Source of the DNA: a virus
Virus record (IMG/VR): IMGVR_UViG_3300045125_000165
DNA: 28,386 bases
Direction: 5' to 3' (one strand)
Part shown: positions 1-26,430 of the stretch, one piece after another
Layout: the number at the start of each line of letters is the position of its first letter
Position numbering within the stretch: position 1 is the stretch's first letter
Program-made: the position numbers and the translations under genes
The notes under the pieces: generated by a model
What the model was told of the DNA's origin: nothing
Seen by the model: only the letters and a program-made list of their open reading frames with translations
Databases searched by the model: none

Positions 1-822
1 AAGCCAAAAGTTGATATACCCGTCAAAACTGAAGAAAGTGATATAAAGCCAACTCAGCAACAAATCAATTCAGGGAGGTTTTTCTGGATTCTTGCGGGTA
101 TTGTGGCGATCGCCTTTGGGTTCTCGCTATTTCAGCAGCCTAAGCAAACTGAAACCTTGATGGAATCTCAACAGCCATCACAGGAGCCACAAGTACAAGC
201 CTCGCAGTTAGTACCTAGTCAAGCCCAAAATGAAGTAGTTCAAAAACAAACAGAACCTCAATCATTACCAGAGCGTGACCCAACAGCTAACATCCGTAAT
301 GTCACAGCAATGGAAGTCCTTAAAGAAACCAATCAGGTTTTAGAAAAGGCTCCAGAAGCAAGAGCAAGATTTCTATATGCTCAATGGCAGCAATTAGCGG
401 TTCGTAATCCACAGAGCTATAGATCCTATCTATTAGCTCAACTAAAAAGGGTAAATACTGCTGCATCCAAGTTAAGTTTAGAATCCAAAACTTCTTTAAT
501 TGGCAGTGCTGAGCAATTGGAAATTGCTTTAGATTTGTCGATTGATGCCGAAGCGATCGCATCTGAATTAAGTTGCCTCTACATTGCCGATGGTAAGATG
601 CCAGCCCCTACAACTCCGTTAAAATGCCAAAACATTGCCGTTAACTCGCCATCCATTGCGATCGCCACTTTGATTAAAAGCTTAAACGCCCTTGAGTTTT
701 ACGAAGGGATGCTACAGCAAGCAGATGCCGAAGAAGAAACTCAGAGAGCATTAGCATTGCAAGCTCAGAGAATAAAAGCAAATACTCAAGCCAAGCCAAA
801 GGTAGGGATTTTAAATAAATGA
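1..822 (+). CDS. Membrane-anchored hypothetical protein (5' partial; frame open from base 1)
   Basis: Frame 1 is open from the window start (KPKVDIPVK...RFFWILAGIVAIAFGFSLF). One TM segment, a Q/P/E-rich linker, then a helical domain. Stop overlaps the next ATG. Confidence 0.7.
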   Translation, partial: KPKVDIPVKTEESDIKPTQQQINSGRFFWILAGIVAIAFGFSLFQQPKQTETLMESQQPSQEPQVQASQLVPSQAQNEVVQKQTEPQSLPERDPTANIRNVTAMEVLKETNQVLEKAPEARARFLYAQWQQLAVRNPQSYRSYLLAQLKRVNTAASKLSLESKTSLIGSAEQLEIALDLSIDAEAIASELSCLYIADGKMPAPTTPLKCQNIAVNSPSIAIATLIKSLNALEFYEGMLQQADAEEETQRALALQAQRIKANTQAKPKVGILNK

Positions 823-2306
823 AATTTCAACCAATCACAACTAAAAATATAGTAATTTGGCTTGCATCAGGCGCGATCGCTGGTGCAATTGGCTTATGGT
901 CTGCTTCGCTAACCTTTGAGCGCACCGTAGGTAAAAGAGTAACTGCCAATGGAGTACCTGTGGTTGTCACTATTGATCGTCCGAACAAAAACAGGCTTTT
1001 ATTTCTATCAATTGCAGCAGGCTTGATTGGTGCGGCGGCGTTGGCAACTTTGGTTGTAGATGAGAAAGGCGATCGCCTGTTATGTCCTGAAACACTGGTA
1101 GATGATATCGGTGAAGCAAATAAGGTGTTAGCTAATAATATTGGCTGTGCATTACTGTTTGTGTCAGGCAGGGGCTTTAAATGGGCATTTGGTAAGCAGT
1201 CAATTGCTAGGCAGATCACATTGTCGGTTTTGCCAGTTGAGATTCAGCGATCGCATGAAGGAATTAGTCTCTAAGAAAGATTGGTTCAAAGATTTTTGTC
1301 AGCACGTAGGCACTATATTTTGTGCGGCTCGACTGGGGACGGAAAGACAATGATGCTCAACGCGATTATTATTACCTTCCTTCAAAACGCTCAAGCAAAT
1401 GTCTCCAATGGAATTAGCAAAGACCGCTTAGCTATATGCGATCTGAACTATGGCAAACGAGACGAAAAAGGAAATCTCAATACTTGGCTTGATTTACCTC
1501 GCGAATATATTGCAGCTACGGTTGACGAAATCATGCTATCGGTTCGCTCTGTAATTGCAGAGCTACGCGATCGCCGCCAAGATGATATCAACTGTGCTAC
1601 AGCAAAATCCAATGGTGACGAAGCTAAATACAAGCTACTTGAGGCTAAGTCGAAAGAGCGTGGCAACGTTCTTTTAGTTGTAGAGGAGCAGATGAGTACT
1701 CGCGCCGCTATCAAGTCGGTTGATCCTGAATTACTCAAAGAATTTGACGCTTCAATTAACGAGATTCTGCGCTATGGACGTGGTTATTTAGTCAAGGTCT
1801 TGATCGTGCTTCAGTACCTCAATGCAGGCAAAGGTGACGAAGGTAACGGAATTAATTTGGGCTTGCGTGACCAGTGTTGCATTGCCTTATTAAAAACAAT
1901 GGCAGTGCAAAAAACTCAAGTTGAAAAAATCTCGACCGAACCTGATGAGTTGGTTAGCCAATTTAAAGAAGCCTTGAAGCGATTCCCGTATCTTGCCTTA
2001 GTTCAAAACGATGGCGGCAATCCAAATATTAGACAGATTCCCGATCTATCTTGGACTAGTGGATTTTCTATCAAGAAAAATGTTGATTCAATTGATGTTT
2101 GGTGGTCACAAGTCTGGACAGAAGCTAATCAGCAATGGGCTATTGACTTGATTGAACAAGGGCGATCGCCAACATCATCAGCATTCGATTCCGAAATCAA
2201 AACCCGTTTCGGAATTGGCAGAAATGCTAAAGACCCTCGCTACCAAAAATATAAGGCGGCGATTGAGCAAATCAAATCTAAGCAAAAACAATTAGTAGGA
2301 GCATAA
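819..2306 (+). CDS. Membrane-anchored FtsK/SpoIIIE-HerA superfamily ATPase (DNA translocase / coupling-protein-like), split by about 2 indels near 1245-1290
   Basis: ORF 819-1274 has 2 TM segments. A bridging frame reads DRMKELVSKKDWF. ORF 1281-2306 has Walker A GSTGDGKT, Walker B LLVVEE and the FtsK-like motif ILRYGRGYLVKVLIVLQ. Confidence 0.75.
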
Positions 2307-2310
2307 AGAG

Positions 2311-2757
2311 ATGTCAGATGGAAGTGGTAAGAATCCAGTAACAAATGTATTCGGTTCGATTGGCGGCGCAATAATGCTTGCTTTTATAGTTATGGGAACT
2401 CTTGCTTTTATATTTGGAATCGTAACGGGTAGAAAGCCAGAAAGGGGTAATTTAACAAGTGTTACGGATGTTTTATCTTGGCTGGGTGCGCTTACTAATA
2501 CCGCTACTCGTTCAACTGTAGAAACTTTTGCCCCTGATATTTACAATAAAACAAATACGATTGATGGTTCTGCCGATCAACTTAAATTGATGCAGCCATC
2601 ACAGCAGGGACTAGTCTTTGACGCTGTGCCAACTAACGCTAAAGCAAAATCTAATCAAACCAACAATGCAGCAGCGATCGCTGAACAAACCGAAGTTTAC
2701 GATGTTGACCTAAACGGGAATCCAATCGCACCATTAACCCCAGCTAAAAAGAAATGA
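2311..2757 (+). CDS. Hypothetical membrane protein
   Basis: N-terminal hydrophobic segment (IGGAIMLAFIVMGTLAFIFGIV). AGGAG upstream. ATGA overlap with the next gene. Confidence 0.7.
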   Translation: MSDGSGKNPVTNVFGSIGGAIMLAFIVMGTLAFIFGIVTGRKPERGNLTSVTDVLSWLGALTNTATRSTVETFAPDIYNKTNTIDGSADQLKLMQPSQQGLVFDAVPTNAKAKSNQTNNAAAIAEQTEVYDVDLNGNPIAPLTPAKKK

Positions 2758-3251
2758 GATTATCTAGTGCTGTAACAGGAGTAGGAGCTATAGCTATCCT
2801 TTGGTTCTGCGGTTTACTGGATTTTGCCCCAAAACTATGGGCTGATTTAGGTAACTGGGAAGGTGCGGACACTATCAATAAGTTTGGAGTAATTGGGCTT
2901 CGTGCTATTGGTAATCAGTGGAAAAACAAGGTAGGTAGCTTGGATGCAAAACCACTACCTACCTACACCGCAAAGAAGTTAGGCGATGATTTCTGCATGA
3001 TCAATACCACTAATCCTGACGCGAAGCTCTCTAAAAAGGATTACGACAAACACGTAGAGGCTATCAATCTTAAGGTGCGATCGCCTCTACAATCCCCAAA
3101 CAGTTCAGTCTATTGCTATGACAAGAACAATCACACAGGACTGATTTATCAAACTGAGTGGATACCAAATAAATTCCTTCGTATTGATGCTGCTACAGGC
3201 GGCGAGACCATAGTTGACACAACTCCAAAAGCTGATGCAGTTAACAGATGA
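2754..3251 (+). CDS. Hypothetical secreted or membrane-anchored protein
   Basis: N-terminal hydrophobic signal/anchor; translationally coupled within the operon. Confidence 0.7.
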   Translation: MRLSSAVTGVGAIAILWFCGLLDFAPKLWADLGNWEGADTINKFGVIGLRAIGNQWKNKVGSLDAKPLPTYTAKKLGDDFCMINTTNPDAKLSKKDYDKHVEAINLKVRSPLQSPNSSVYCYDKNNHTGLIYQTEWIPNKFLRIDAATGGETIVDTTPKADAVNR

Positions 3252-3885
3252 TGAACTACAAACTTTAAAGAAACTTGTGAGGGAGCGCAAAACTGGCTAC
3301 CTCAACGAGAACATCTTGGAAAAAGCTATCCGCAACATTGCCGCCCATGAATCTGATGGGGTAATGGAGTGGATAATACCAGTCCTAATTTTGATTTTTC
3401 TTTCTACTGGTCTGTGGCAAAACTTCAAACCTAAAACACAGATTTTAAATAAGTTGCCAGAGATCAGTACGAGCCAAATCAAAGGTAAAAAACCTAATCT
3501 AGTTTACAAAGAACACTTTATAGATAACTCCCCTGTTGGCTCCTATGACTTTACTTTGATGTCCGACGGTGAAGTTAAAGGGGTAGCAGTTCCTAGTCCT
3601 TGCGATGGCAAAATTGTAATATCTGAAGAGATGCGAGGCTATGGCAATACGATCGCCATTGATTGCAAAGACTATCGTATTTTTATGGCGCATCTAGCAG
3701 AGAAGGGATTACCCGTTGGCAGTGTAGTTAAAGAAGGTGAGGTTATTGCTATTCAAGGAACCACAGGAGATTCTACTGGTGAGCATATTCACTGGGAGAC
3801 ATCACCAGCAGGGACAGATAAACGCATAGAAGATAGAGCAATTACAGCACCATTAGTTTTGCAATACATTAATAAAATTCGATGA
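3214..3885 (+). CDS. M23 family peptidoglycan peptidase with a TM anchor
   Basis: GYGNTIAI...FMAHL...VKEGEVIAIQGTTGDSTGEHIHWE, the M23 HxH motif. TM segment WIIPVLILIFLSTGLW. The start may be the ATG at 3235. Confidence 0.9.
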   Translation: MTQLQKLMQLTDDELQTLKKLVRERKTGYLNENILEKAIRNIAAHESDGVMEWIIPVLILIFLSTGLWQNFKPKTQILNKLPEISTSQIKGKKPNLVYKEHFIDNSPVGSYDFTLMSDGEVKGVAVPSPCDGKIVISEEMRGYGNTIAIDCKDYRIFMAHLAEKGLPVGSVVKEGEVIAIQGTTGDSTGEHIHWETSPAGTDKRIEDRAITAPLVLQYINKIR

Positions 3886-4172
3886 ATAAACTGCCAATCC
3901 TTACACGCCGCCCAAGACTTTACAGTCAGCGCTCTGCAAAAGTAAAGCCAAAGCGATCGCCTAACAAATCGATCAAACAAATAATCAACACTCTAACAAT
4001 GTTTTGCGCCTTGGTTTGCTTAGTATTAATCGCCTATGCCATCTATATCGCTCTACCTCACATTGGTTATGGACTCTGGCTAATGTTGCCTTGCCTTATT
4101 CAGGCGGCGATTATTGCGTTGATTGGTGCAAGCCTTCAAGCGTTTTTGCAGTGGAGCGATCGCGATGGGTAA
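3882..4172 (+). CDS. Small 2-TM membrane protein with a basic N-terminus (holin-like candidate)
   Basis: K/R-rich N-terminus and two long hydrophobic stretches; lies between the two wall hydrolase genes. Confidence 0.55.
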   Translation: MNKLPILTRRPRLYSQRSAKVKPKRSPNKSIKQIINTLTMFCALVCLVLIAYAIYIALPHIGYGLWLMLPCLIQAAIIALIGASLQAFLQWSDRDG

Positions 4173-4515
4173 AAAATATCGCACCAAAATGGGACAAAGA
4201 TATTCTGCCTATATCAACTCCTCAAAATGGAAAAATAAGCTCCCGTTTTTTCACTCATTTTTAATACACCGTGACGCAATTTGTCCTTTACTCCCTGCTA
4301 ACCATGTCCATCACTTAGCTTATTGGGGACTAGGCTGGGAGATCTATATTCTCCATGTAGTACCACTCAATAAATATACTCACGCGATTGTCGGCATGTT
4401 TGACTACGCACCATTCCCGATTAAGTTCCCATTCAATATGCTGCTTAGAGCATTGTGTTTATTCTGGACGATCGCCTTTATCCCTTTGCATCTTTATAAA
4501 AAACTATGTCGCTAA
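4165..4515 (+). CDS. Degenerate HNH-like protein with a C-terminal hydrophobic tail
   Basis: YSAYINSSKW...NHVHHLAYWGLGWE...VPLNKYTH resembles small phage HNH proteins (YxxY..S..W, VHHxxY.LGxE). Start follows GGAG-HIP1-ATG at 4165. Confidence 0.55.
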   Translation: MGKKYRTKMGQRYSAYINSSKWKNKLPFFHSFLIHRDAICPLLPANHVHHLAYWGLGWEIYILHVVPLNKYTHAIVGMFDYAPFPIKFPFNMLLRALCLFWTIAFIPLHLYKKLCR

Positions 4516-5117
4516 CATCATGGGCAAAGCGATCGCCGAGTAACACATCAGTAATCGCACTTACTTTAATTGTGGTGATTGGCTTAAATTTCTATTACCG
4601 CGATCGCCCAAATATTGAAGCTGCAAATAATGTTTCGGATAACGGTAGTGCGATCGCTTCTACAAATATCCCGCCCAAAATCAAAGCGTTTTTGACGGTA
4701 ATTTCATGGGCAGAAGGGACAGACGGGAAAGATGGGTATAAAACCCATTTTGGTTACGAGAAATTTGAAGACTTTAGTGATCATCCTCGTAAGGTAAAAT
4801 CAGCGAGCGGATTCAGATCTGATGCTGCTGGCAAATATCAAGCCATGTCATTTACATGGGATCGGATTGCTAAGAAGATTGGGCTTAAAGATTTCTCTCC
4901 TGCAAATCAAGACTTATTTGCGGTTGAGCTTTTGAAAGAATGCGGTGCTTATGATTTGATTATGCAAGGTAATATCGAGGCGGCGATTATTGCAGCATCA
5001 CCAACATGGGCATCGTTCCCAAAACAAGGTGGTGGGAGCTTTTACCCTGATCAACCTGCTAAACCTATGCCCGCTTTGCTACAACGATACAAAGAAGCCT
5101 TGGAAGCGAATAAGTAA
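4506..5117 (+). CDS. Lambda-R-like muramidase / lytic transglycosylase (GH104-like) with an N-terminal TM segment
   Basis: AFLTVISWAEGT, SDAAGKYQ, TW, DFSPANQD and WASFP motifs. N-terminal hydrophobic anchor VIALTLIVVIGLNFYY. Confidence 0.9.
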   Translation: MSLTSWAKRSPSNTSVIALTLIVVIGLNFYYRDRPNIEAANNVSDNGSAIASTNIPPKIKAFLTVISWAEGTDGKDGYKTHFGYEKFEDFSDHPRKVKSASGFRSDAAGKYQAMSFTWDRIAKKIGLKDFSPANQDLFAVELLKECGAYDLIMQGNIEAAIIAASPTWASFPKQGGGSFYPDQPAKPMPALLQRYKEALEANK

Positions 5118-5125
5118 GAATACAA

Positions 5126-5332
5126 ATGAAATCATCAGAGCTAAAAGAAAACATGGCAGTCAAAACCATCGATTCTGCATTGCGTCGTGAGAATCGAATT
5201 AAAGGATCAAAGCATGGCGTGGTTGTAAGCCCGAAAATCGTTAAAAATGGCACTGTTCCCATGGTGCTTGTGCAATTTGAAAGGGAAACTGAGGCGCGAT
5301 ATGTGCCGATCGTGCGATTGGAAGCAGCGTAA
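5126..5332 (+). CDS. Small hypothetical protein (SH3-like beta-rich)
   Basis: 68-aa ORF directly after the muramidase. Confidence 0.55.
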   Translation: MKSSELKENMAVKTIDSALRRENRIKGSKHGVVVSPKIVKNGTVPMVLVQFERETEARYVPIVRLEAA

Positions 5333-5359
5333 AAATCAACCAAAAACAGGACACAAAAT

Positions 5360-5863
5360 TATGGGTTGGAAAGCATTTAAAAAACACTTCAACATCGAAT
5401 ATATCGTACAAATTCGCGATGGTAAATTATTGATTGGTTCGCCATATATTAGCGAGTTAGTTGCTATCTCGTTGGAAAGTGGCAAAAAGAATCAACTAGT
5501 CGCAAGGATTTTTTGAAAGAGTACTACCCTGCGATACTAGAGGCAACGCCCGAACAAATTAAAGCACTGATTGATCAGGAAGATACTTTTGAGCGCTCCA
5601 TCACGGTTTACACCCATGACAATTTAAAGATTCTTACAAAATATTGCGAGAAATTGGGCTACCCAAATGTTACCCATGACGGTGTTTTGATGTATGAAGA
5701 TAGTTTTTCAACTGACAAAGATCAGGTTATTGAATGGGCAAAGCAACGACATGCTTATAGGTTAGAGGAATTACAAGAGCGTGTCAGAGAAAAGAGAGCA
5801 GAGCTTGCAAAATGGGAGGAACGACTTGAGGAAGTAAGTAGACAAGAATTGACTTTTGAGTAA
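5360..5863 (+). CDS. Conserved phage hypothetical protein, frameshifted near 5490-5515
   Basis: MGWKAFKKHFNI...IGSPYI joins ...GYPNVTHDGVLMYEDSFSTDK, a pattern I recall from a single conserved mobile-element protein family. Confidence 0.6.
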
Positions 5864-5929
5864 ACTCCGTGATCCTCTGTTCCCAGTTTCCAAAAATGGT
5901 AGTATGGCGATAACATCAACGCGATCGCC

Positions 5930-7558
5930 ATGCCTACCCTAAAGCAACTAACAAAAAAACACGCGACTTATATACTAGAGTGCGATCGCTGGACACTACT
6001 AGAAAAACTTGTCGCAGGTGGCAAAAAGGTAGACTTAGAAACAAAGAAAAGTCTACTTCAAAACCCCGATGGCAGACCACCAAACATTATTGAAGCTAGA
6101 GCCAAACTAGCCCCATACGTCAATATCTTGGGTTCGGCACTGCAAAGAGTTGTTGCACAGCTATTTCAAGAACCCGCAAATTTTGAAGGGTCTAAAGATG
6201 ATTTTTGGATTGATTGGCTAGACTCTAAAGCATTTGTGCTTGACGGGGATGATGACAGTAAAGCCAGTTTTACTCTTGGATTGAAGAAAGCTGCAATGGC
6301 GGCTTTTACCAATGGCAAGGCGATCGCCGAAATTAGCACCAAGTATTCAGGTGAAGCGACAAACTTAAAACAACAAAAGGAACTAGGCGAGTTAGATCCT
6401 TATGTCGTGATATTGCCTCAGTCAGCGATGTGGGACTGGGATGTTGATGCAAGTGGGTTTAAATACGTCAAGATTTGTCGATATCGATTGGAGAAAAAAG
6501 ACTGGAAGGATGTTGATGTACCAGTTTATAGCTTTACAATTTATGAGAGGCAGCAAAATAAGATAGTTGTAAGCCAATACGAAGTTAGACCTAAACCCGA
6601 ACTTGAGCAGTACAAAACTAATCCTGCTAGTTTCAAATTAACGGAATCCACTTCAGATGATGACGTGGTGATCTCCACCGTAGAGATTGGTGGGATTAGC
6701 TATGAAAATGTCGAAATATTTAATCTCAATGGCAAGTTCGATTTCCGATCAAGACATTAACCTTTCCGCCTGAATTGTGCATAGGCGATCAGTTAATGGA
6801 TCTGTGCGTTGAGTTTTTCAATATCAAGGCTGGCATTGCTTGGAAACTCCAATCGATTAATTTCTCCATGCCAGTGGTGACTTTACCGCCTAACGTTGAA
6901 ACTGCTGATGAATTATGGGGTAAGGGGCAAAAGTTTGGCGACGGATATTTCTTGGCAGTGCCTAATGGGACAACTGTAACGACTTTAGATATGGGAGGTG
7001 GCAGTATCTCAACAGCTATTAACTATCTCGAAAAGATCGCCGAGAGCTTTATGTCTTTGTTGCACCAAATTTCAACAAGCGCAGCCTCAAGTAATTCGGG
7101 ATTAGGGTCGCAGCGCTGACAAGACTCGCGAAGATAAAAAACTTGAAGTCTCTATGCTTGAAGTAACTGGGATGGAGATCGCTTCGTTTGCGGACTCTAT
7201 ACTTGATTGCAGTGCGATCGCTAGGAATGAAAATATTGATTGGACAGTAGACGGGTTCAATAATTACCTCGGGGAAGGGCTTGATGAGATGTTTAGTGAT
7301 ATTGAGAGAATGCTAAAAAATGCCATCAATACACCAACACTTCGCAGAGAAGAAATAAATAAAACCTCTACAGCTTTCTGCAAAAAATACAAAGTTTCTG
7401 ATGACTCTAAAAAAGCGATCATGGATGAAATCGCCACCTTGCCTGATGAAACTTTACTCAAGCCAATGTCTTTACCTTTACCGCCAACACCACCACAGGA
7501 GCAAGCCAATGCAGACGGACAAGATACTGGAGCAGATATTCAACCAGAAGAAGCCTAG
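5930..7558 (+). CDS. Probable phage portal protein, split into 3 ORFs by indels
   Basis: The N-terminus HATY...RW..L..LVAGG...EARAKLAPYVN resembles DUF4055-type portals. ORFs 5930-6760, 6775-7119 and 7154-7558 join to about 540 aa with an acidic, Pro-rich tail. Confidence 0.6.
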
Positions 7559-7808
7559 CCTTCGGCAATTAATCAGGCAGGCGATCGCCGATCTACCACA
7601 GGAGCATCAACGGATAGTGAGAAAGCGCTTTAAAGACGTGCATTTTTGCGTACTTGCAATTATCAATTACGATCAGTTTTCTGCGCGTGATGCAATTGAA
7701 GGGACTATTGCGGCGATCAATTTTAGTGATCCTGATTTTAAGTTGGACTTCAAGGCGATCGCGGCTAATAGTCCTAAGCGGTATATTGTTGATCGGTTGC
7801 CTGATTAG
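7509..7808 (+). CDS. Hypothetical protein
   Basis: MQTDKILEQIFNQ... overlaps the end of the portal-like gene; last gene before attP. Confidence 0.5.
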   Translation: MQTDKILEQIFNQKKPSLRQLIRQAIADLPQEHQRIVRKRFKDVHFCVLAIINYDQFSARDAIEGTIAAINFSDPDFKLDFKAIAANSPKRYIVDRLPD

Positions 7809-7925
7809 CTAGGCGATCGCTAAAGAAGCTTTGCTATCTCAGTATCCACTTGAGTCCCTATTGAGTCCCCAATATTTTTAAATCCCTAAAACCCATACGA
7901 GCAAAAGATCGTAATCACTATTATA

Positions 7926-7972
7926 TTCCCTTGGTAAGGGAAAGGTCACGGGTTCAAATCCCGTTGAGGGCT
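7926..7972 (+). tRNA. 3' half of tRNA-Thr(GGT); att core, not a full tRNA
   Basis: Anticodon arm TTCCC-TTGGTAA-GGGAA, variable loop AGGTC, T arm ACGGG-TTCAAAT-CCCGT, acceptor 3' strand TGAGGGC-T. No D arm or 5' acceptor strand upstream. Confidence 0.85.
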
Positions 7973-7995
7973 TAACACTAAAAACCATACAGCAT

Positions 7996-8037
7996 AAGCG
8001 GTTCAACCTAAAAGGCTGAACCGCTTTATTGTTTTTT
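7996..8037 (+). terminator. Rho-independent terminator downstream of the tRNA fragment
   Basis: AAGCGGTTCA...TGAACCGCTT stem followed by TATTGTTTTTT. Confidence 0.75.
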
Positions 8038-8101
8038 GGCACACTTTAAACTATCGTAAATTATCGTAAATCATCGCAGTTTATCGCATTTTGAGTCCCC
8101 T

Positions 8102-9129
8102 ATGAGTCCTCAAAAATCTAGTAAGGGAAAAGTCTCAATAGAGGTCAAGAATGGTTATTTGCGTTTGCGATGGCGATACTTGGGGACTCAACACACTTTG
8201 TATACTGGGTTGCCTGATGAACCAGTATCTCGTACTGTTGCTGAAAGCAAAGCCAATGCGATCGCGTTGGATATGTTATCAAACAATTTTGATAAAACCC
8301 TTGCCAAATATAAACCTCAGAAAGCAAAGCCTAAACCAGAAAACAGATCGCCATTAGATTTGTATCTTGAATTTCTGGAATTTAGGCGATCTGCAGGTTT
8401 CGACTGTGACAGCGAAAAATATGAGTCCTTGACCGAGGGCTTAAAACGAGATCCGAAGCCTGAAAAATATTTTAGAAATACTGAGTACTGATAATAATCC
8501 TGAAACGGTTAAGCGAAAACTTGAATGGTTAGACCAGTGCTACAAATTTCATGGCACTACAAACCCGTTTGATTTGGTTAGTCAACGGTTAAAAATACCG
8601 CCAAAACTAAAACCTCAGCCATTTACAAGTGAGGAGGTTGAGTTGATTTTGGATGGGTTTAAAAATATGTACCCTCATTACTTGCCCTATATTCAGTTTT
8701 GTTTAAGTACGGGTGTTCGAGTACAGGAAGCAAGGTTTTTAAAATGGGATCAATTATCCCCAGACTTAACTCGTATTCAAATACTTGATTTTAAGCGTAG
8801 CAAGACCCGAAGTTTTAAGTTGCCTGACTTGGCGATCGCTGCAATCAGATCGGTAGAGCGATCGCGATGAATATGTTTTTACCAGTGTTGAAGGAAAGCA
8901 GATAGATGCTGGTAATTTCAGGAAACGGTATTGGATACCAGTACTAGAAAAGCAAGGGATCGATTATCGCACTCCGTATAAATGCCGATCTACAGCCATA
9001 TCTCATGCGTTGAGTAAAGGCGCTAATCCTATGGCGATCGCCGCCGTAACTGGTCACGATGTCCAAACGCTTTATAACGAATATGCTGGCTTCATTGAGT
9101 CATCACCTAAGATGCCAGACTTGTTTTAG
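8102..9129 (+). CDS. int: Tyrosine integrase with an N-terminal Arm-DNA-binding domain (several indels)
   Basis: GYLRLRWRYLG...TGLPD (arm-binding domain), TGVRVQE, and a C-terminal frame PYKCRSTAISHAL...TGHDVQTLYNEYA ending at TAG 9127-9129. Confidence 0.9.
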
Positions 9130-9424
9130 ATTTTTTGGATAGTTTAAATATTGTTTGTCGAGATTTCGTAAATTCTTCAAGCTGCTCTGGTTCGTTGCGT
9201 AGCCATGCTTCGCAGCGATCGGCAAAATAAGTAATACCACCCTGATTTGTCCAATGATAATGCTCACAAAATGGAATGCCAAGAGCGTTAGGGGTTTGTT
9301 CGCGCTTCCACTTATTGATTGTGGTTACACCTTTACCTAGTCGCTCCGCAATCTCAATCGTAGAAAGGTTGTTTTTTTTGTTCGTTAAAAGTTGTTTGAG
9401 CGCTTCTAGCGTTTCGGTATCCAT
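9107..9424 (-). CDS. Excisionase / recombination directionality factor-like HTH protein
   Basis: LSTIEIAERLGKGVTTINKWKR HTH; convergent on and overlapping the end of the integrase. Confidence 0.65.
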   Translation of the reverse strand: MDTETLEALKQLLTNKKNNLSTIEIAERLGKGVTTINKWKREQTPNALGIPFCEHYHWTNQGGITYFADRCEAWLRNEPEQLEEFTKSRQTIFKLSKKSKTSLAS

Positions 9425-10941: not shown

Positions 10942-11808
10942 ATGGCGAACAAACAGATATCTAGCGCGATCGCTACAACATCTATTAAAGAGAAAACACT
11001 CCCTCCTATCCTTCGTTGGGCTGGCGGGAAGCGCAAACACAAATGGTTGTTTGAGGCTATTAAGCAAGTATTCAATCCGAATAAACATAGGTTGATTGAG
11101 CCATTTGCAGGTGGTTTGGCGATCGCGTTGGGAATAGAGCCGAAATGGGCTTTATTGAATGATGCGAATCCGTTTTTAATCTCTTTATATAGGCGGATTA
11201 AAAATGGGTTTGAGATCGATCCAAACCTCAAAAACTATACATCCAAAGAAAGTTATTACAGGTTGCGCGATCGCTTCAATACCTTACTGTCAATGCCGTA
11301 CCAAGAAGTACAGACAGAAATAACAGAGCTTTTCTACTACCTCAATCGCACTGGTTATAACGGGCTTTGTCGATTCAATCAAAGTGGAGGTTATAACACC
11401 CCTTATGGCAAACTCCCAAAGCCAAAACTAGATCACGATTTTGAAGCTTATCGCGATCGCTTCCAAGACTGGGTGTTTACCAGTATGGACTTTGCGGATA
11501 TCCAAGTATTTCCTCATGACATCGTAGTTGCAGATCCTCCCTACGATGTTGCCGAAGGAAAAGATAAGCACAATTATGTCGCTGGTGGGTTTGATTGGGC
11601 GGATCAGGTGCGTCTCGCTGATTGGCTTGAGTCTGCCAATGTACCTGTATTTGCTTGTAATCTTGCGACCGATCGCATCATCAATCTCTACACAGAGAAG
11701 GGTTTCGATATTCAATATGTCAACGCTCCAAGGGCGATCGCTTGTAATGGCGATCGGGCTAAGGTGCGCGAGATTTTAGCTACTAAGAATTTGGGAGTCG
11801 CACCATGA
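10942..11808 (+). CDS. dam: DNA adenine methyltransferase, D12 class (Dam-like)
   Basis: PPILRWAGGK, IEPFAGG, LNDAN, YYLNRTGYNGLCRFN and DPPY motifs. Confidence 0.93.
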   Translation: MANKQISSAIATTSIKEKTLPPILRWAGGKRKHKWLFEAIKQVFNPNKHRLIEPFAGGLAIALGIEPKWALLNDANPFLISLYRRIKNGFEIDPNLKNYTSKESYYRLRDRFNTLLSMPYQEVQTEITELFYYLNRTGYNGLCRFNQSGGYNTPYGKLPKPKLDHDFEAYRDRFQDWVFTSMDFADIQVFPHDIVVADPPYDVAEGKDKHNYVAGGFDWADQVRLADWLESANVPVFACNLATDRIINLYTEKGFDIQYVNAPRAIACNGDRAKVREILATKNLGVAP

Positions 11809-11860
11809 GTTTACGCTATGAAATGGGAAGTTGAGAAGCCAGTTTTGAAAGACAAAAGCA

Positions 11861-12579
11861 ATGCTCAAAATCATTGAACTATTCGCAGGAATACGCGCCT
11901 TTTCTCTCGCTTCTGAGTGGATAGGTGGTTTTGAGACGGTTGAAGCAGTAGAAATCAATTCTTACTGCAACGAGAAAATGCTTAAACGTTATCCCAATGT
12001 GCCTATCCATGAAGACATTAGAACGTATCACCCCGCAATACCAGCAGATGTCATTGTTGGGGAAGCCCATGTCAAGGTAACAGCCAAGCAGGAAAAGGTG
12101 AAGGCTCAAAAGACTCACGCTCAGGACTTATCACTGAGTTCTTTCGAGTTATTCAAGAATCTATGCCTAGATTTGTCATTTGGGAAAATGTCTACGGCGC
12201 GATCGCTAGTGGACAGCTTAGAGAAACCCTCACCGAACTCGATAGACTTGGCTATGGATTCGATGCTGAAATCATATCAGCAGAGGAGGTTGGAGCGCCC
12301 CACGAAAGAAAAAGGATCTTTGTGGTTGCCTACTCCAACAGCATTATCAAAGCCGCCAGAGGCAAAGTACTCGAAAGCTGGACAGACCAAATTAGATCTC
12401 AAATTGCGATCGCTCGGACTTTTGGATGCTGGGAAAGTTCGCAGTTGCCAGACAACGGCGTGGATCATGGGGTTCTCAATCGATTGGCTGGGCTGAGTGC
12501 TTATGGTAATGCGATCGTCCCTCAAGTGGCGATCGCGCCTTTGTTGAGAGTCAAATATTTAGCGGAGCTAGCAGGATGA
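11861..12579 (+). CDS. dcm: C5 cytosine methyltransferase (alpha chain), one indel in the G-run near 12060
   Basis: Motif I ELFAGI. After the shift: GSPCQGNS (motif IV), WENV (VI), HERKRIFVVAY (VIII), AYGNAIVPQVA (X). Confidence 0.88.
12188..12496 (+). CDS. Nested out-of-frame beta subunit of the C5 MTase (carries motif IX)
   Basis: The alternative frame reads ...LERPTKEKGSLWLPTPTA...TAWIMGFSIDW, a motif-IX-like WxMGFPxxW segment missing from the alpha frame. This matches the M.EcoHK31I-type arrangement. Start inferred. Confidence 0.65.
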   Translation: MSTARSLVDSLEKPSPNSIDLAMDSMLKSYQQRRLERPTKEKGSLWLPTPTALSKPPEAKYSKAGQTKLDLKLRSLGLLDAGKVRSCQTTAWIMGFSIDWLG

Positions 12580-13199
12580 ATGACTTACCGATTGAAAAGC
12601 AATTTACCCACATGATGTTTTGCGCTCAAATCGCCAATATAGACTTAGACAGCGCAAAACAACTACTCACCGAGCTTCATATGCTCTACCTAGGGCAGCA
12701 AGCGGTCATGGTCAAGATCGCAAAGCAAGAATTTCTAGGATTCAATACAACTACTGAGGGAGCGAAACTGAAGATGTTTGAACTCAGTCGCGATTATAAA
12801 AGGGCTTTTGAGCTAATCAAGAAAGGCGATCGCCTAATGTTTGAGCTTAGTCGAGATTACGATAAAGCGTGGCAATTGATGCAACAAGGCGATCGCTTAG
12901 CTTGTTGGGTTGACTACGATTCGTGTAGAGATATTGCTACTGCACGAATCATTTGCGGCGCTCTAGATATAGGTGCTAGAGGCATGGGTTATATCTATCT
13001 ATTTGAAGATCAAATTCAAACTAGCAATATGTTTGTTAGTCAGTGTAATCGCCTAAATATTGAGTTTTATCTACCACTGCCTGACGACACGATTGCAATT
13101 AGTCGAGAAAAGTTTGAAGCGATCGCAACTAAAGTAATTCAAGAAAAAGTTGGCAACCCTTTGGACAAATTGATTGAAACTGTGGAGGCGATCGCATGA
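12576..13199 (+). CDS. nblA: NblA-like phycobilisome degradation adaptor (about aa 1-55) fused in frame to a phage hypothetical domain
   Basis: LPIEKQFTHMMFCAQIANIDLDSAKQLLTELHMLYLGQQAVMVKIAKQEF matches the NblA pattern LSLEQQF..F..QV..M..EQA...L..L. The downstream domain begins with a duplicated MFELSRDY. Confidence 0.75.
   Translation: MNDLPIEKQFTHMMFCAQIANIDLDSAKQLLTELHMLYLGQQAVMVKIAKQEFLGFNTTTEGAKLKMFELSRDYKRAFELIKKGDRLMFELSRDYDKAWQLMQQGDRLACWVDYDSCRDIATARIICGALDIGARGMGYIYLFEDQIQTSNMFVSQCNRLNIEFYLPLPDDTIAISREKFEAIATKVIQEKVGNPLDKLIETVEAIA
12774..12899 (+). repeat. Diverged 63-bp tandem duplication, each unit ending at a HIP1 site
   Basis: MFELSRDYKRAFELIKKGDRL / MFELSRDYDKAWQLMQQGDRL; units at 12774-12836 and 12837-12899. 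Confidence 0.9.
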
Positions 13200-13968: not shown

Positions 13969-14165
13969 CCAAAATTAAAAACAGGCAACTCGCGATCGCC
14001 GATGAAATGTTGCATGACAGCCGCAATCCAGCACTTGACGCAAAAGCCTTAAATGCAAGGCTAGTCTACTATCGCCGTCAAATTCTTTCTACTACTTCTG
14101 AGTTAGGAGTGGCGATCGCTGCTCTCGATACCGATATAACTTTACCAATGGAGATACTAGGTTGA
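13956..14165 (+). CDS. Hypothetical protein
   Basis: Coupled ORF within the operon. Confidence 0.55.
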   Translation: MEALTKIKNRQLAIADEMLHDSRNPALDAKALNARLVYYRRQILSTTSELGVAIAALDTDITLPMEILG

Positions 14166-14791
14166 TTAATCTCAAGATCTCTCCGTCATCTCTAACCTTT
14201 CTGTTAGATGAATGCCCTCGATGTTGGTACATGGCAGTAAATGGGATCTATAAACGACCATATACACCATTCCCTAGCATGTTTAATAAAATGGATAAGC
14301 TAATGCGTGGTGCTTACCAAGGTCAATCTAGCCTTGATATTACTGGAAAAGAAGGTGTATTTGACACCAAAGAATATAAGCTTGTTTCTCGACAAATCCC
14401 TATTTCCGACAATCACACCATTCAATTTTCTGGCAAGACTGATTGCTTGATTAAATTTGACGATGGCACTATCGGAATCATGGATTTTAAGACTAGCGAT
14501 GTTAAAGAAGATACAGCTAAGTTTTATGCACCTCAGCTGTATGCCTATCGAGAGTGCATGGATGCTGAGGTGTCAAAAATGGGGTTACTTTGCGCTAGTC
14601 CTGTCAAAGCAGTGCTAGATGGCGGGATCTCAATGCGATTCTCTGAAACATGGGTTGAAATCCCCATAAGCGAAGACTACTGGCAAGGCTTCACTGACAA
14701 ACTAGCTACACTTTTGCTTACTCCCTTCGAGTGGGTACAAGGTAATCCAAAATGTCCACACTGCGAATACCAAAGGAATAAGAACTCTTGA
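14162..14791 (+). CDS. PD-(D/E)XK exonuclease (RecB/Cas4-like, four Cys)
   Basis: ISPSSL...CPRC, SGKTD, IMDFKTS, QLYAY and a C-terminal CPHC. Confidence 0.85.
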   Translation: MINLKISPSSLTFLLDECPRCWYMAVNGIYKRPYTPFPSMFNKMDKLMRGAYQGQSSLDITGKEGVFDTKEYKLVSRQIPISDNHTIQFSGKTDCLIKFDDGTIGIMDFKTSDVKEDTAKFYAPQLYAYRECMDAEVSKMGLLCASPVKAVLDGGISMRFSETWVEIPISEDYWQGFTDKLATLLLTPFEWVQGNPKCPHCEYQRNKNS

Positions 14792-15198
14792 ACTCAATCG
14801 TTTTATATGCCACAGCCACGACCGATCCCGAATTGCGTCACACACCTGACACTCAAAACAGGATCGCGTCATTCCTAATCCAATTTCCTGCGCCCAAACA
14901 GGAAGATCCACCACTAAGGCTCAAAGTTACGGCTTGGAATAACCTCGCAGACAAGGCGATGTTGGAAATCGCTAGAGATTCTCAAGTAATCATCGAGGGG
15001 CGATTACGAATCGATAATGTTGATCGCGGTACGCACAAAGAAAAGCGCACTGAATTAGTTGCCGAAAAGATTCACGCGATCGCCGCCACCACACCTCAAC
15101 CAGTACCAACCAACTACGCTCAGTCTGTTCCCGTAGCCCCGATCGCTCCACAAGTAATTCAACAACAAACAGAAGATTATGATGATATCCCATACTAA
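14788..15198 (+). CDS. ssb: Single-stranded DNA-binding protein (divergent cyanobacterial type)
   Basis: PELRHT...KVTAWNNLA...VIIEGRLRI OB fold, Pro/Gln linker, acidic tail DYDDIPY. Confidence 0.85.
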   Translation: MNSIVLYATATTDPELRHTPDTQNRIASFLIQFPAPKQEDPPLRLKVTAWNNLADKAMLEIARDSQVIIEGRLRIDNVDRGTHKEKRTELVAEKIHAIAATTPQPVPTNYAQSVPVAPIAPQVIQQQTEDYDDIPY

Positions 15199-17327: not shown

Positions 17328-17702
17328 TTAAAAATCATCATCGTATTGCCCACCGCAGCCATTACTAGCAGCTTCATTGTCTTTGCGAGAGCCAAGTAGA
17401 TCCAGTCTATCAACCCGAATCACTGGCTTTTGACGCTCATCGCCTGTGGTTCTGTCATTCCATCGATCAAACTTAAGAGAGCCAATAACACCAATTAAGC
17501 TACCTTTCTTGACATAGTTTTGAGCGACTTCAGCAGTCTTGTCCCATAGCTCTAGATCAAACCAGTCGGGCGGATCATCACGGTTACTGGTATTGCGATT
17601 GACGGCGATAGTAAAGTTAGCGACAACTTTACCTGACTCAAAATACTTGACTTCAGGATCGCGTCCTGCACGACCGACTAGATGGACTTTATTTAACGTC
17701 AT
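17328..17702 (-). CDS. ssb: Single-stranded DNA-binding protein (canonical short cyanobacterial type)
   Basis: MTLNKVHLVGRAGRDPEVKYFESGKVVANFTIAVNR...PDWFDLELWDKTAEVA...; tail YDDDF. Confidence 0.95.
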   Translation of the reverse strand: MTLNKVHLVGRAGRDPEVKYFESGKVVANFTIAVNRNTSNRDDPPDWFDLELWDKTAEVAQNYVKKGSLIGVIGSLKFDRWNDRTTGDERQKPVIRVDRLDLLGSRKDNEAASNGCGGQYDDDF

Positions 17703-18004
17703 AGCTTGATTTTGTCCCAATGTTTTTTAGTGAATGCGATCGCCTCTTGGATAGAGTCGAATGCAGTTTTCTCTCTAAATTTGTCTGTTTTATGGCGTGG
17801 CTCTTGCACCCAAGTTTTGTTTTTAGTAAATAAACAATGATTGCAAGAGATTACCCAATACACGTTCTCTAAAGCTCTTTGTCCATCTTTAAGCTCAAAC
17901 TTAAAAACCGAGCGAATCTCTAAAACATCTGCGCGACGTTCATCTAGCAAAATCCGTAAGCTTGGATAAACTGGTAATTCAAAATCCTCAATATTTAGTT
18001 CCAT
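17699..18004 (-). CDS. Hypothetical protein
   Basis: Coupled ORF. Confidence 0.6.
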   Translation of the reverse strand: MELNIEDFELPVYPSLRILLDERRADVLEIRSVFKFELKDGQRALENVYWVISCNHCLFTKNKTWVQEPRHKTDKFREKTAFDSIQEAIAFTKKHWDKIKL

Positions 18005-19565: not shown

Positions 19566-21920
19566 TTAAAACTCCTCCCATTCATCTAAATCTGGGTTGT
19601 AAGGTTGTGGTGTGGTTTGTAATTGTTGGGGTTGTTGAGGCGCGTAAACTTCAAGGACAGAGATTGGATTGCCTACTCGGCTATGTCTACCATTGAAAGC
19701 TGATGTGCATTTCCCTCCACTTAAATTGTTTCGGCGTTTTAGAAATCCAAATTCAATAAGCCCTTTGTTTGGACTGTTTGGATTATATTTCTCGTCAAGA
19801 TAGGTGTAGATAATGTCATCACAATCCTGTTCAATTTGCCCCGACTGCTTTGCATCCGCAGGTGTAGGTCTAGCATCCGATCTCTTCTCTGCTTCGCGAT
19901 TAAGTTGTACTAAATAGAAAATCGCAACATCTAGTTCCTTTCTTAAATTCCGCAACTGTCTAAGGCATTCGTTAATGTCCTTGGTTTCATCATAGGTGCG
20001 CTTTTCTGGCTTGAGAAGCTGAATGTAATCAATAAAAATAGCTGAGATAGCACCTTTCTCGACCCGAAAAGAGCGAATCCTAGAGCAAAGGGAATCTACG
20101 CTTTCAATATTGTCATAAATATATAAATTGGTCTGCTTGTAAGCTCCAATCAAATCTTTAAAAGTTTGGCGATCGCGTTCTGATGGAAAATCGTTATAAC
20201 GAAACATATCGCCATCTAAACCTGTATTCATCGCAGCCCCTTTAAAAGCTAGCTCCTCTTTACTAGACTCCAAAGAAAGGTAGATTACGGATTGATCGGG
20301 GTAATCGATCGCTACTTGCTGCGCCCATTGTGCGGTAAGTGTAGTCTTCCCGTTGCTAGGTCTGCCATAAATTCCGACAATTGATTTTTGAGCGACTTGC
20401 CCAATTTCATCAAGTTCACGAATACCAGATCTCAAGGTTCGCTTTAATTCGATTTCAGGATTAGCTTCTTTTTTGGCTTGAATCTCAGTACTGTGACGCT
20501 CTAGAATTTCTCCCATGTTTAGAAACTCGCCGCCAGAACTTTGCAAGGTTTGGAAATCGACAAACTTCTGTTGCGCGATCGCTACTAGTTTCCTGACATC
20601 TTGAGACTCTTCGGTAAAAAGCTTGGAAAATTCGCGCCCCAATGCTTCGACCTGTCCGCAAAATGTATTTGTCTTTGACGACTTTGCATTGAAAAGCTAG
20701 ATCATTGTCGGCAAATTGTTCAGCGCGATCGCGATAACTCTGTAGGTCTTTCTGACTAACCTTATCTCCAAATCCTTGCGAGTAAGCCTTTGATGCACAC
20801 TTAAAACATCAATAGGCTCTAACTCATGAAAAAGCTCTAGAATCGCAGCGCAAATTTCGCGGTTTAAAGGGCGGTAAAAGTGGTCAGGGGATACTAGACT
20901 ACCTAAAGTACTGCCAACACGGTTTTTATCTAGCAAAAACTGCCCAATGATGAAAGATTCAGCGTCAAGATCTTGCGGGGGGATCGATTGGCTGTTGATC
21001 GGCACTAGGTTGCCTAACTCTGTCTCAGGGGTGTAAATCCTTTGTGTTTCAATGGACTCAAGGATTAATTGCTTAGCAAGGTCAGGATCACCAATGTCTT
21101 CTACCCAGTCTTTGAGGTCATAGCCCTTGCCTGTCTCCCATCTTTCCCATTCTGGGTTAGTTGGATCAGCATAAAGCCATTGAGCTTTGATGTCTTGACT
21201 GATTTCTAGGCAATGCTTTACACCAGAGCGATCGCGATCGGGGCATAGAACCACGTTAGCGCCCTCTAGTGAAGACACGTAAAGACTAGGCTCTTTGTCT
21301 ACTAATCCCTGAATGAGATTTGGTACATCTTGACTCATTCCTCCATATGCTTTCCACTTTCCAGAGCCGCCGATATTGGTGGTTGCTGCTAGCCCCATGC
21401 TTAGCAATAAATCGACTACTAGTTCACCCTCAACGTAAAACAATGGCTTACCTGTGGCGATCGCGGTCTTGGTTAATTGGATCGTTGATGCGATAGAGGT
21501 TAACTTTGCGCTTAATCTCATCTGGCATATCAAAGCTTTGCCACTTTTCGCCATTCCACCAAGCTTGCCTGATTTCTTTTTGCCATCACCTAAGTCTGTG
21601 CGCTTAACCTGTACCAATTTTTCGCCATTTTGTGCGGGGTATTGAAAATAAACAGGCTTTGATGCTGGTCTAATGGGCTTTTGCCATTGCACAGCCTTTT
21701 CTTTGGTTTCAGCGATCGCGAGATTTTAGGGGTCTGATCGCTTCGCGAATCTTATCGTGTGAGCATTGCCCATTGCTATAGCAGGAGTACTCGCCTGTTT
21801 TTGCGTCTACTGAGAGGCTGTTGCCGCCACAACTAGGACAAACATAGTAACCACGCCCTTTATGACTTGGGGTGAGTGTTTCGTGAAGTTGCGGATATCG
21901 AAGGTTTCTAGTATTCCCAT
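19566..21920 (-). CDS. dnaB: Primase (Zn finger + TOPRIM) - DnaB helicase fusion, split by indels
   Basis: N-terminal YVCPSCGG...YSCY...C zinc finger. TOPRIM YVEGE...CPDRDRSG. DnaB N-domain PPQDLDAE...HFYRP...PIDVLSV. Helicase motifs GRPSNGKT, SLES, IDYIQL, QLNRE, SGQIEQDCD. Confidence 0.85.
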
Positions 21921-24081: not shown

Positions 24082-24651
24082 CTATTTAACAAACGGCTCC
24101 AGCCAAGTCGAAACGTGCATATAGCCAAATCCAGCGTTAACTGCTGCACCGAAATCCTCATCGCGATCGCTGACCATGAGATAACGATAGCGATCGCCTT
24201 CACTTGCTGGCAAGAGTTCCAATCCTTTTGAAGTCCGAACAATATCTTGCAAGGAAGCATTTCGGGAATACCTCAAAGCATTTAACATTCCACCTTGGGG
24301 TTTTCTGAATGTTCCGATGTATTTAGGATATGCGTCGCTGTACTTGCAAGAACTTAAGAAATCCACCAAGTAAGCACTTTGTCCATCGTCAGGGCAAAAC
24401 ATTCCAATACAAATGCCAGTGAGTTTTATCGCATATTGCATCTCAGCGATCGCCTGTTCCAAAGTTTTGTGACCAGCAGCTACACCGCCTTGATTGCTTG
24501 CGATCGCCATAGTCCAACCGTCAGCAGTATAGGCGGCGATCGCTTCTGCAACACCATCAATGAGAACTTGATCTTCAGGGTGTTGGACAAAGGTATGTCC
24601 TGATTTTGTGCGGGTTAAAGTTCCGTCCTTGTCTAGTACTAATAGTTTCAT
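24082..24651 (-). CDS. HAD-IIIA family phosphatase (polynucleotide 3'-phosphatase / GmhB-like)
   Basis: LVLDKDGTL, IASNQGGV, FRKPQGGML, MVSDRDED..AA..AG. Confidence 0.88.
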   Translation of the reverse strand: MKLLVLDKDGTLTRTKSGHTFVQHPEDQVLIDGVAEAIAAYTADGWTMAIASNQGGVAAGHKTLEQAIAEMQYAIKLTGICIGMFCPDDGQSAYLVDFLSSCKYSDAYPKYIGTFRKPQGGMLNALRYSRNASLQDIVRTSKGLELLPASEGDRYRYLMVSDRDEDFGAAVNAGFGYMHVSTWLEPFVK

Positions 24652-26036: not shown

Positions 26037-26103
26037 GGATTACGCCAAAATAAACGACTGGATTTTACGAGAATCAAGAGAATAAAGCGGGTGATAAATT
26101 CGT

Positions 26104-26430
26104 CTAAGGGCTGGAAGGTAGACAGTGTGGTAGTAGACAAAAAACCGCGTAACACTGTCCCTGCGCCACTCTTTCGACCGTGTAGCCTCTTGACTCCCAA
26201 GTTGACGCAAGCCTTTCTGCCAAAGCGATAATGTCGTACCCGTGAGGATCTATCTCTACGGTTCCCTCTTTTATCAAACGCACCCAGATAGGTTTTGGTA
26301 AAGCCAAAACATCTTGAACGCAATCTTCTTTTGATGTGATGACCATTGCCCCATTGCCTTGCACCCTCACCTGTACGTCAGCTACAAACAAGCCACTTAA
26401 ATCAATTGTCACTTCTTCAACCAAATTCAA
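26104..26430 (-). CDS. Hypothetical protein
   Basis: First ORF after a promoter; 3' end possibly frameshifted. Confidence 0.55.
   Translation of the reverse strand: MNLVEEVTIDLSGLFVADVQVRVQGNGAMVITSKEDCVQDVLALPKPIWVRLIKEGTVEIDPHGYDIIALAERLASTWESRGYTVERVAQGQCYAVFCLLPHCLPSSP

Follow-up and report, generated by a model that had tools for sequence, protein, structure and literature searches.

Introduction

The first 5,117 nt of the viral DNA stretch IMGVR_UViG_3300045125_000165 (28,386 nt; the whole stretch is called the window here) hold a block of genes in which an FtsK-like ATPase is combined with membrane proteins and two wall hydrolases. The closest described counterpart lies in the Planktothrix phage PaV-LD, where ORF129L-ORF122L encode, in the same order, a small transmembrane (TM) protein, a ~270-aa partner with one TM segment, a ~475-aa FtsK-like ATPase, small TM proteins, an anchored M23 peptidase and an endolysin. 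The PaV-LD ATPase is 27-29% identical to window-type ATPases (2e-18 to 2e-21), and the M23 proteins are homologous. Unlike the window, PaV-LD has intact genes, a canonical HxxxD motif in its M23 protein and a GH108-like endolysin, that of the window being lambda-R-like. Only the hydrolase end of the PaV-LD cluster has been studied and read as a lysis module, and the ATPase is without an assigned role. Expression of ORF123 and ORF124 has lytic or bacteriostatic effects, and it is these that the authors call a lysis module (PMC9096620).

Three further systems invite comparison. The Tcp locus of the Clostridium perfringens plasmid pCW3 encodes TcpA (PDB 6o1w/6o1x), which is the best fold match of the window's ATPase and has, like it, two N-terminal TM segments followed by an FtsK-like domain. 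The same locus also encodes the peptidoglycan hydrolases TcpG and TcpI. However, sequence similarity to TcpA is weak, the host of the module is a diderm cyanobacterium, and counterparts of TcpF (VirB4-like), TcpH (VirB6-like) and TcpC (VirB8-like) were seen neither near any copy of the module nor on the two plasmids that carry it. The Streptomyces TraB/Spd systems and the actinomycete integrative and conjugative elements (AICEs) have a single membrane FtsK-type ATPase beside small membrane proteins and no type IV secretion system (T4SS); they are carried by plasmids and small integrative elements with recombinase and replication genes, and their hosts are multicellular filaments (PMC3218068). 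In all of this they resemble the module. On the other hand, the module has added M23 and glycosidase genes, is found also in a tailed phage and shows no clt-like repeats in positions 1-5900 of the window, and its likeness to Spd is one of arrangement. AICEs have been reported in Actinomycetales only (PMC3218068). Finally, FtsK/SpoIIIE share with the module ATPase a RecA-type motor fold and a membrane anchor, but the module ATPase is much shorter (495 aa), shows no long linker or recognisable gamma domain, and its gene, carried by mobile elements, shares an operon with those of wall hydrolases.

Compared with these published TraB/TcpA-type translocase modules, the module described here is a variant, and the window adds one more, damaged copy of it. 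We tentatively read the block as one copy of a conserved envelope machine that mobile elements carry, namely a conduit for DNA of a conjugation- or spread-like kind, with hydrolases that phages also use for lysis; our confidence in this reading is limited. In the literature we found no description of the whole module or of a cyanobacterial FtsK-type transfer system.

Results

Gene content of the block

Open reading frame (ORF) calls give eight genes in 1-5117, all on the + strand. TM segments were called by Kyte-Doolittle scans with a 19-residue threshold. The genes are as follows.

1-822, +: g1, protein with one TM segment, ~300-340 aa if complete; its 5' end is cut by the window
819-2306, +: ATPase gene, FtsK/TcpA-like with two TM segments, interrupted; intact relatives have 495 aa
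2311-2757, +: g3, small protein with one TM segment, 148 aa
2754-3251, +: g4, protein with one TM segment, 165 aa, no family assigned
3214-3885, +: g5, membrane-anchored M23 peptidase, 223 aa, TM segment at residues 49-67
3882-4172, +: g6, small protein with two TM segments, 96 aa
4123-4515, +: g7, small protein with a hydrophobic segment at its C-terminus; HNH-like in appearance by eye only
4506-5117, +: g8, N-terminally anchored lambda-R-type lysozyme or lytic transglycosylase, 203 aa, the last gene of the conserved block

An earlier note on this DNA, made from the letters alone, had described eight tightly coupled genes whose products all carry hydrophobic anchors. The coupling was confirmed, with junctions that range from a 50-nt overlap to a 4-nt gap; the stop of g1 and the start of the ATPase gene share the sequence ATGA. 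In 1-6000, promoter-like and terminator-like sites occur at chance level, no commoner than in shuffled sequence, and a single operon therefore fits. Hydrophobic segments were found in each of the eight products, those of the ATPase being N-terminal (residues 11-29 and 62-80), but the N-terminal stretch of the g8 lysozyme is shorter and stays below the 19-residue threshold.

By sequence comparison, g1 is the conserved partner of the ATPase, encoded upstream of it; it has no match in Pfam, PHROG or Atlas. The g3 protein has a weak match to T4SS_pilin (E 0.029, below the Pfam cut-off). The true start of g7 is probably the ATG at 4189, since its homologs align only from residue 27 onward. The earlier note had taken g7 for a degenerate HNH protein; no Pfam, PHROG or PDB match was obtained, and the best E against PDB sequences, 0.14, is at chance level.

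Assignment of the ATPase

Single-sequence searches with the ATPase detect the P-loop only. We have used a profile of 64 family sequences (alignment A3) to search PDB chains. This profile matched EccC (7.5e-12), EssC (1.4e-11), HerA (6.7e-9), FtsK (7.8e-9) and, more weakly, TcpA (3.2e-6), while the match to TrwB (0.12) was not significant. The ATPase domain was then modelled by AlphaFold on the 64-sequence alignment, with the window's own sequence, to a mean predicted local distance difference test score (pLDDT) of 93.3. This model, based on a deeper alignment, supersedes an earlier full-length one that was poor (pLDDT 69; Z below 6).

In an unbiased comparison with 48,161 PDB representatives, the best fold match of the domain was TcpA (6o1x; Z 18.4, root-mean-square deviation 3.1 A over 221 residues), followed by the FtsK motor (Z 16.2) and EccC domains (Z 15-16). 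Lower down came VirB4 (Z 14.0), HerA (13.4), the packaging ATPase B204 of STIV (12.8) and TrwB (11.1). The alignments to TcpA, FtsK and EccC each cover about 215-230 residues. Foldseek agrees, with FtsK at 1e-6 and TcpA at 1.4e-6, at a probability of 1.00. The C-terminal tail of the model is helical and basic.

The Walker A motif GSTGDGKT is present in the window translation, and its Gly and Lys (G21, K22) as well as the Walker B Glu (E136) do not vary among the 64 aligned sequences. Against PF01580 the window fragment reaches 18.2 bits, below the cut-off of 24, and the intact homolog in a related locus (L005) reaches 26.9 bits; the same family is precomputed for 7 of 28 ATPase homologs. By profile and predicted fold, the ATPase is of the FtsK type (FtsK/SpoIIIE-HerA superfamily), and with its two N-terminal TM segments it has the TcpA/TraB/FtsK architecture. 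The description of it as a 2-TM FtsK/SpoIIIE-type ATPase in the earlier note thus stands as to type and membrane segments, but the gene is not intact here.

The family is small: among 1.84 billion representatives it comprises 86 clusters at 50% identity with E below 1e-3, nearly all of 370-520 aa. Most of the feature-based look-alikes in the ESM Atlas come from cyanobacteria or viruses, and one of the best viral fold matches is a protein of a Nodularia phage; both are leads only.

The ATPase does not cluster with packaging ATPases, TcpA and FtsK both scoring above STIV B204. PaV-LD (NC_016564) encodes TerL, a portal, an HK97-type head protein and a tape measure protein, as well as ParB. Since this phage has its own terminase and portal, the FtsK-like ATPase is not its packaging motor. 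A packaging ATPase of a membrane-containing (double jelly-roll) virus was rejected on the same two grounds, the TerL and portal of PaV-LD and the lower Z of STIV B204.

Conservation of the module as a unit

The whole gene order is kept in six loci from metagenomes or metagenome-assembled genomes (MAGs), L001-L006. Syntenic homologs of g1 are found in all six and those of g3 in L002-L006, and g6 has homologs in L002, L004 and L006. Synteny of the window with L004-L006 stops at the g8 lysozyme, and the downstream neighbours of the module differ between elements. Downstream of the L005 module come a 950-aa protein containing a He_PIG Ig-like domain (6520-9372, +) and, after it, a 318-aa protein with no family assigned; the window has neither.

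A tblastn search with the ATPase matched PaV-LD ORF127L, which is annotated as FtsK/SpoIIIE, and both plasmids of Oscillatoria acuminata PCC 6304. In PaV-LD and on the plasmids the ATPase has a ~270-360-aa protein with one TM segment on one side and small TM proteins, then wall hydrolases, on the other. A search of 401 cyanobacterial genomes yielded three more, very divergent copies of the same layout (L017-L019), in integrated or plasmid-like loci. The recurring order is thus a partner with one TM segment, the ATPase, small TM proteins, an anchored M23 peptidase and a glycosidase, in L001-L006, PaV-LD, the two plasmids and L017-L019 alike. Viral-contig scans with alignment A2 and with P0036 gave no match, and a genome-contig scan gave one MAG only; in alignment A1 and the broad alignment A3, conservation was nowhere high enough to derive a pattern for scanning.

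The ATPase, the upstream partner and the M23 protein are homologous across all versions of the module, and the ATPase is always included, also on plasmids without phage genes. Homology of the upstream partner is weak but repeated: g1 of the window matches its counterparts in L017 (2e-4) and L018 (5e-4), and g1 of L004 matches the partner on an Oscillatoria plasmid (4e-4). A small 2-TM protein further upstream is common to the plasmids, L017, L018 and PaV-LD (ORF129L). What is more, the g3 homolog of L002, although not the window's copy, weakly matches the L017 protein d1 (2e-4). The module is therefore conserved as a unit elsewhere, in phages, plasmids and integrated elements.

Elements that carry the module

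In IMG/VR, ORF130L-ORF120L are kept in order in all 16 of 16 PaV-LD-like viral contigs. The ATPase is under purifying selection, the ratio of nonsynonymous to synonymous substitution rates (dN/dS) being 0.05-0.15 in the phage, window-type and plasmid lineages; the ATPases of the two Oscillatoria plasmids differ by 20% at a dN/dS of 0.09. On both of these plasmids genes for ParM and a DUF5906 replication protein adjoin the module. From end to end, no capsid, terminase, tail, VirB4 or VirD4 gene is annotated on them in the PLSDB gene table, which is incomplete. The plasmid pOSCIL6304.02 carries a MOBP relaxase, and no relaxase was seen on the other plasmid, pOSCIL6304.01, or in the window or the remaining loci.

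Among the divergent copies, L017 has a ParM-like gene upstream of the module, L018 is a short island with host genes and a TnpB gene at its flanks, and in L019 the module lies beside a serine recombinase gene and a DUF3854 primase-like gene. The L019 layout resembles that of actinomycete AICEs (PMC3218068).

The earlier note had seen no VirB4 or relaxase gene in the window, and this was upheld beyond its cut edge: Pfam searches found neither within 10 kb upstream of the module in L004 or within 7.6 kb downstream of it in L005. Nor did Pfam find VirB4-like or VirB6/VirB8-like proteins in these two regions or in L017-L019. VirB4 is the universal T4SS ATPase, and with no VirB4 a canonical T4SS was rejected.

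Wall hydrolases

The assignment of g5 as an anchored M23 peptidase was borne out (Pfam PF01551, E 4.1e-15, 56.2 bits against a cut-off of 28.7; one TM segment). Motif analysis shows that the His of its HxxxD zinc motif is missing; the Asp of this motif, the His of AHL and the HxH are kept, so that the other four catalytic and zinc-binding residues are retained. The same His is missing from the M23 proteins of L017, L018 and Oscillatoria, and the motif is canonical in those of PaV-LD and L019. In every version of the module the M23 protein is homologous over its full length in pairwise comparisons.

The lambda-R-like muramidase of the earlier note was likewise recovered. The g8 lysozyme matches lambda lysozyme (1AM7/3D3D) over residues 58-181 with an E of 1.2e-27 and with the catalytic EGTD aligned, and it matches the endolysin family phrog_90 at 2e-35. 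The glycan-cutting enzyme differs by locus: the window has a lambda-R-type enzyme, L018 and L019 have SLT forms and PaV-LD a GH108 form, and on the Oscillatoria plasmids a GH108 domain is fused to an M23 domain. This pattern of non-orthologous replacement points to selection for a function and not for a particular gene.

Interruption of the ATPase gene and decay of this copy

Aligned with the 90% identical ATPase gene of L002, the window's gene has gained one nucleotide at about 1246 and lost one at about 1297. Between these two sites it is out of frame, with a TAA at 1272-1274 in the gene's own frame, and the conserved residues between about 1247 and about 1297 are encoded in the +1 frame. 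Close relatives of the ATPase all have 493-505 aa. Over the intact parts, the dN/dS between the window and L002 is 0.05 at a dS of about 1, which argues that the window's ATPase was strongly constrained for nearly all of its history; the break is therefore recent, unless it is a sequencing error.

A HIP1 octamer (GCGATCGC) adjoins the first indel, at 1247-1254. HIP1 octamers number 90 in the window against 0.4 expected, so that the element is fully adapted to a HIP1-rich cyanobacterial genome. Another HIP1 site, at 8858-8865, coincides with one of the frame changes in the integrase gene. Because an indel and a frame change fall at HIP1 sites, methylation-sensitive basecalling error is a live alternative to real decay.

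Several neighbouring genes are also broken. The integrase gene (8060-9126, +) is spread over three frames; its product is 36-47% identical to the PaV-LD integrase ORF018R. Just upstream of it, at 7908-7965 (+), is a partial tRNA-like match (Rfam RF00005, 29.1 bits, model positions 7-64), although ARAGORN found no tRNA there. Together, the tRNA-like piece and the broken integrase gene look like the remnant of an attachment (att) site. A portal-like gene at 5930-7808 (+) is in four ORF pieces that together make about 626 codons, the same length as the 629-aa portal of Microcystis phage Mic1. Only its first ~185 aa match a portal (phrog_145, 1.5e-8; Mic1 portal, 7e-9), and no terminase gene lies beside it. 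The DnaB-type helicase gene (19566-21692, -) consists of two same-frame ORFs 54 nt apart, the upstream one encoding the N-terminal and the downstream one the C-terminal domain, an interruption of the kind seen in the ATPase gene. Of ThyX, a C-terminal fragment is present (27122-27706).

With its motor gene interrupted and several neighbouring genes broken, this copy of the module is probably inactive unless the indels are sequencing errors. The suggestion in the earlier note that this temperate cyanophage may export its DNA thus probably fails for the present copy, and the element looks decayed.

Host type

Planktothrix and Oscillatoria are filamentous, and HetR is a marker of filamentous cyanobacteria. 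HetR was found in 100 of the 401 sampled genomes (a background of 25%) and in all three module-positive genomes of a random 400-genome sample, a result with a chance probability of about 0.015 before any correction for phylogeny or genome size. This lean towards HetR-positive genomes, seen in three sampled genomes, fits the filamentous host that the earlier note had raised as a possibility.

Other features of the window

A 69-nt segment of the window (26099-26167, -) recurs in L004 (8558-8626), L006 (6756-6824) and L002 (1906-1974) at 98.6%, 93% and 84% identity, respectively, far above that of the neighbouring coding DNA. The three other loci have it on the module's strand, inside an ORF ~1.4-1.5 kb upstream of the ATPase gene; in the window it is 26 kb from the module, inverted, and its flanks are unrelated. 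The segment holds an 8-bp inverted repeat (GACAGTGT ... ACACTGTC) and folds no better than shuffled sequence (z -1.0). Possible roles are those of a cis-acting site, an att-like site, or the junction of a recombination or inversion event.

Near the other end of the window, an 87-88-aa gene at 27924-28190 (-) is 75% identical to one at 4664-4927 (-) of L004, about 4 kb upstream of the L004 module. This suggests that the ends of the window are neighbours in related elements, the reason being either a circular or circularly permuted element or a shared backbone.

Two genes for single-stranded DNA-binding proteins lie on opposite strands, at 14788-15198 (+) and 17328-17720 (-), with Pfam matches of 1.9e-13 and 3.4e-30. 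Near them are a PD-(D/E)XK nuclease gene (14162-14791), two DNA methyltransferase ORFs (10942-12496), a polynucleotide kinase (PNK)-type phosphatase gene (24082-24651) and the ThyX fragment. The N-terminal 50 residues encoded at 12576-13196 (+) weakly match NblA, the phycobilisome degradation protein (E 0.009, below the cut-off). As PaV-LD carries nblA, this weak match may reflect a shared phage auxiliary gene.

Discussion

A DNA-pump-type ATPase is tightly coupled in the module to membrane partners and two hydrolases, and it is found on plasmids that have no reason to keep a phage lysis cassette. An envelope-crossing DNA conduit is for this reason the best single reading. In such a conduit the TcpA/FtsK-type ATPase, held in the cytoplasmic membrane by its two N-terminal helices and presumably hexameric, would pump the DNA of the element outward. 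The ~300-aa upstream partner with its one TM segment and the several small TM proteins would form or position the channel, and the membrane-tethered M23 endopeptidase and the tethered glycan-cleaving enzyme would open the peptidoglycan locally, in filamentous hosts most plausibly at the septum. The logic would be like that of Streptomyces TraB/Spd transfer and spreading, or of a stripped-down Gram-positive Tcp-type system without VirB4. In PaV-LD-type tailed phages the same hydrolases could double as lysis enzymes, and phages most likely do use the hydrolase end of the module for lysis too.

The cell-to-cell spreading proposed in the earlier note is supported in part, and none of the outcomes that the note had named as refuting it was obtained. 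It gains from several of the results: the ATPase is not of the packaging kind, no full T4SS lies nearby, and the unit is conserved and present on plasmids free of phage genes. It loses from two, the broken motor of the window's own copy and the reading of the PaV-LD hydrolase end as a lysis cassette (PMC9096620). Both of these weigh against a DNA conduit, as do several other points. A lysis role has been demonstrated for part of the module, since the only annotated endolysin and peptidase of PaV-LD lie there and ORF123 and ORF124 are lytic or bacteriostatic (PMC9096620). By sequence, the protein-secretion ATPases EccC and EssC score as well as FtsK. VirB4 is absent, a relaxase is present on one plasmid only, and positions 1-5900 of the window hold no clt-like repeat array. 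The filamentous link consists of three sampled genomes and two named hosts, without phylogenetic correction, and a fourth module-positive genome, MAG G001, around which the search was centred, gave no HetR hit, although this MAG is fragmented. Finally, we infer transfer itself, as well as hexamer formation, DNA as the substrate, the roles of the partners and the septal site.

The alternative that survives best is a phage-type lysis cassette, made up of holin-like TM proteins, the anchored M23 peptidase and the anchored muramidase, to which the ATPase and its partner would be accessory, for example in the timing or release of the tethered hydrolases. On this view the copies on plasmids and islands would be what is left of phage-plasmids, or would serve for release by lysis. 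In E. coli and Synechocystis, PaV-LD ORF123 (M23 with a TM segment) and ORF124 (the 1-TM 'holin') damage membranes, inhibit growth and act synergistically (PMC9096620). Together with ORF122L they are the only annotated lysis enzymes of this phage, and the g8 lysozyme belongs by its match with the endolysins of phrog_90. However, any overexpressed anchored wall hydrolase is expected to be toxic, so that the published PaV-LD assays do not discriminate between the readings; the small TM proteins of the window show no detectable homology to ORF124. Canonical lysis cassettes are without an ATPase and confined to phages, whereas here the ATPase and its upstream partner are translationally coupled to the hydrolases and co-vary with them across very distant versions. 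What is more, the module is under purifying selection, adjoining ParM, on plasmids without phage structural genes. We consider a lysis cassette, in both its phage and its plasmid or island form, rather unlikely.

A segregation device is improbable. In this case an FtsK-like pump would work with a partition system to clear or deliver copies of the element across the closing septa of a filament, while the hydrolases modulate closure of the septal wall. This would suit the FtsK-like fold, the ParM-like actin genes that immediately precede the module in L017 and on both Oscillatoria plasmids, and the ParB of PaV-LD. But the job is already done by the host FtsK, two dedicated wall-degrading enzymes and several small TM proteins would not be expected, and small integrated islands such as L018 and L019 would have no need of such a device.

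We give equally little credence to protein export of the EssC/EccC (type VII-like) kind, in which the ATPase would secrete or activate the tethered hydrolases or other cargo. EccC and EssC are the best profile matches, EccC domains stand high among the fold matches, and EssC-type ATPases also have N-terminal TM helices. The module ATPase, however, has one ATPase domain instead of three and no FHA domain, its top structural match is TcpA, and Pfam and PHROG scans detected neither WXG100-like small soluble proteins nor EssA/EssB/EsaA-like partners.

A defence or exclusion system, with the ATPase as a sensor of incoming DNA and the hydrolases as the means to kill or seal the cell, is very improbable: mobile elements often carry defence genes and the ATPase has a weak PADLOC match to mad8 (4.8e-6), but the other module proteins match no PADLOC model, a lytic-capable phage lineage keeps the module in synteny as part of its core, next to the only lysis genes that it has, and a known defence system was rejected with this weak ATPase match as the only one.

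Returning to the DNA conduit, its extension to the biology of the hosts is somewhat more doubtful than the conduit itself. Filamentous cyanobacteria would, in that case, host a T4SS-independent system with an FtsK/TcpA-type motor that moves the DNA of mobile elements from cell to cell through the septal wall or envelope, one cassette being shared by plasmids, small integrative elements and tailed phages. The window's own copy matters less here, because its motor gene is broken. To our knowledge, T4SS-free conjugation is so far known from mycelial actinomycetes only.

If true, a TraB/AICE-like transfer route would for the first time be known from outside Actinobacteria, and for the first time a tailed phage would have a virion-independent way to spread along the filament of its host. 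The boundary between phage and plasmid would be blurred by a tailed phage that spreads along a trichome without virions, and the finding bears on how published 'lysis modules' in phages of bloom-forming cyanobacteria are read. Such a parallel system would also explain the movement of many T4SS-less plasmids in filamentous cyanobacteria, and multicellular growth would be linked with one particular style of gene transfer.

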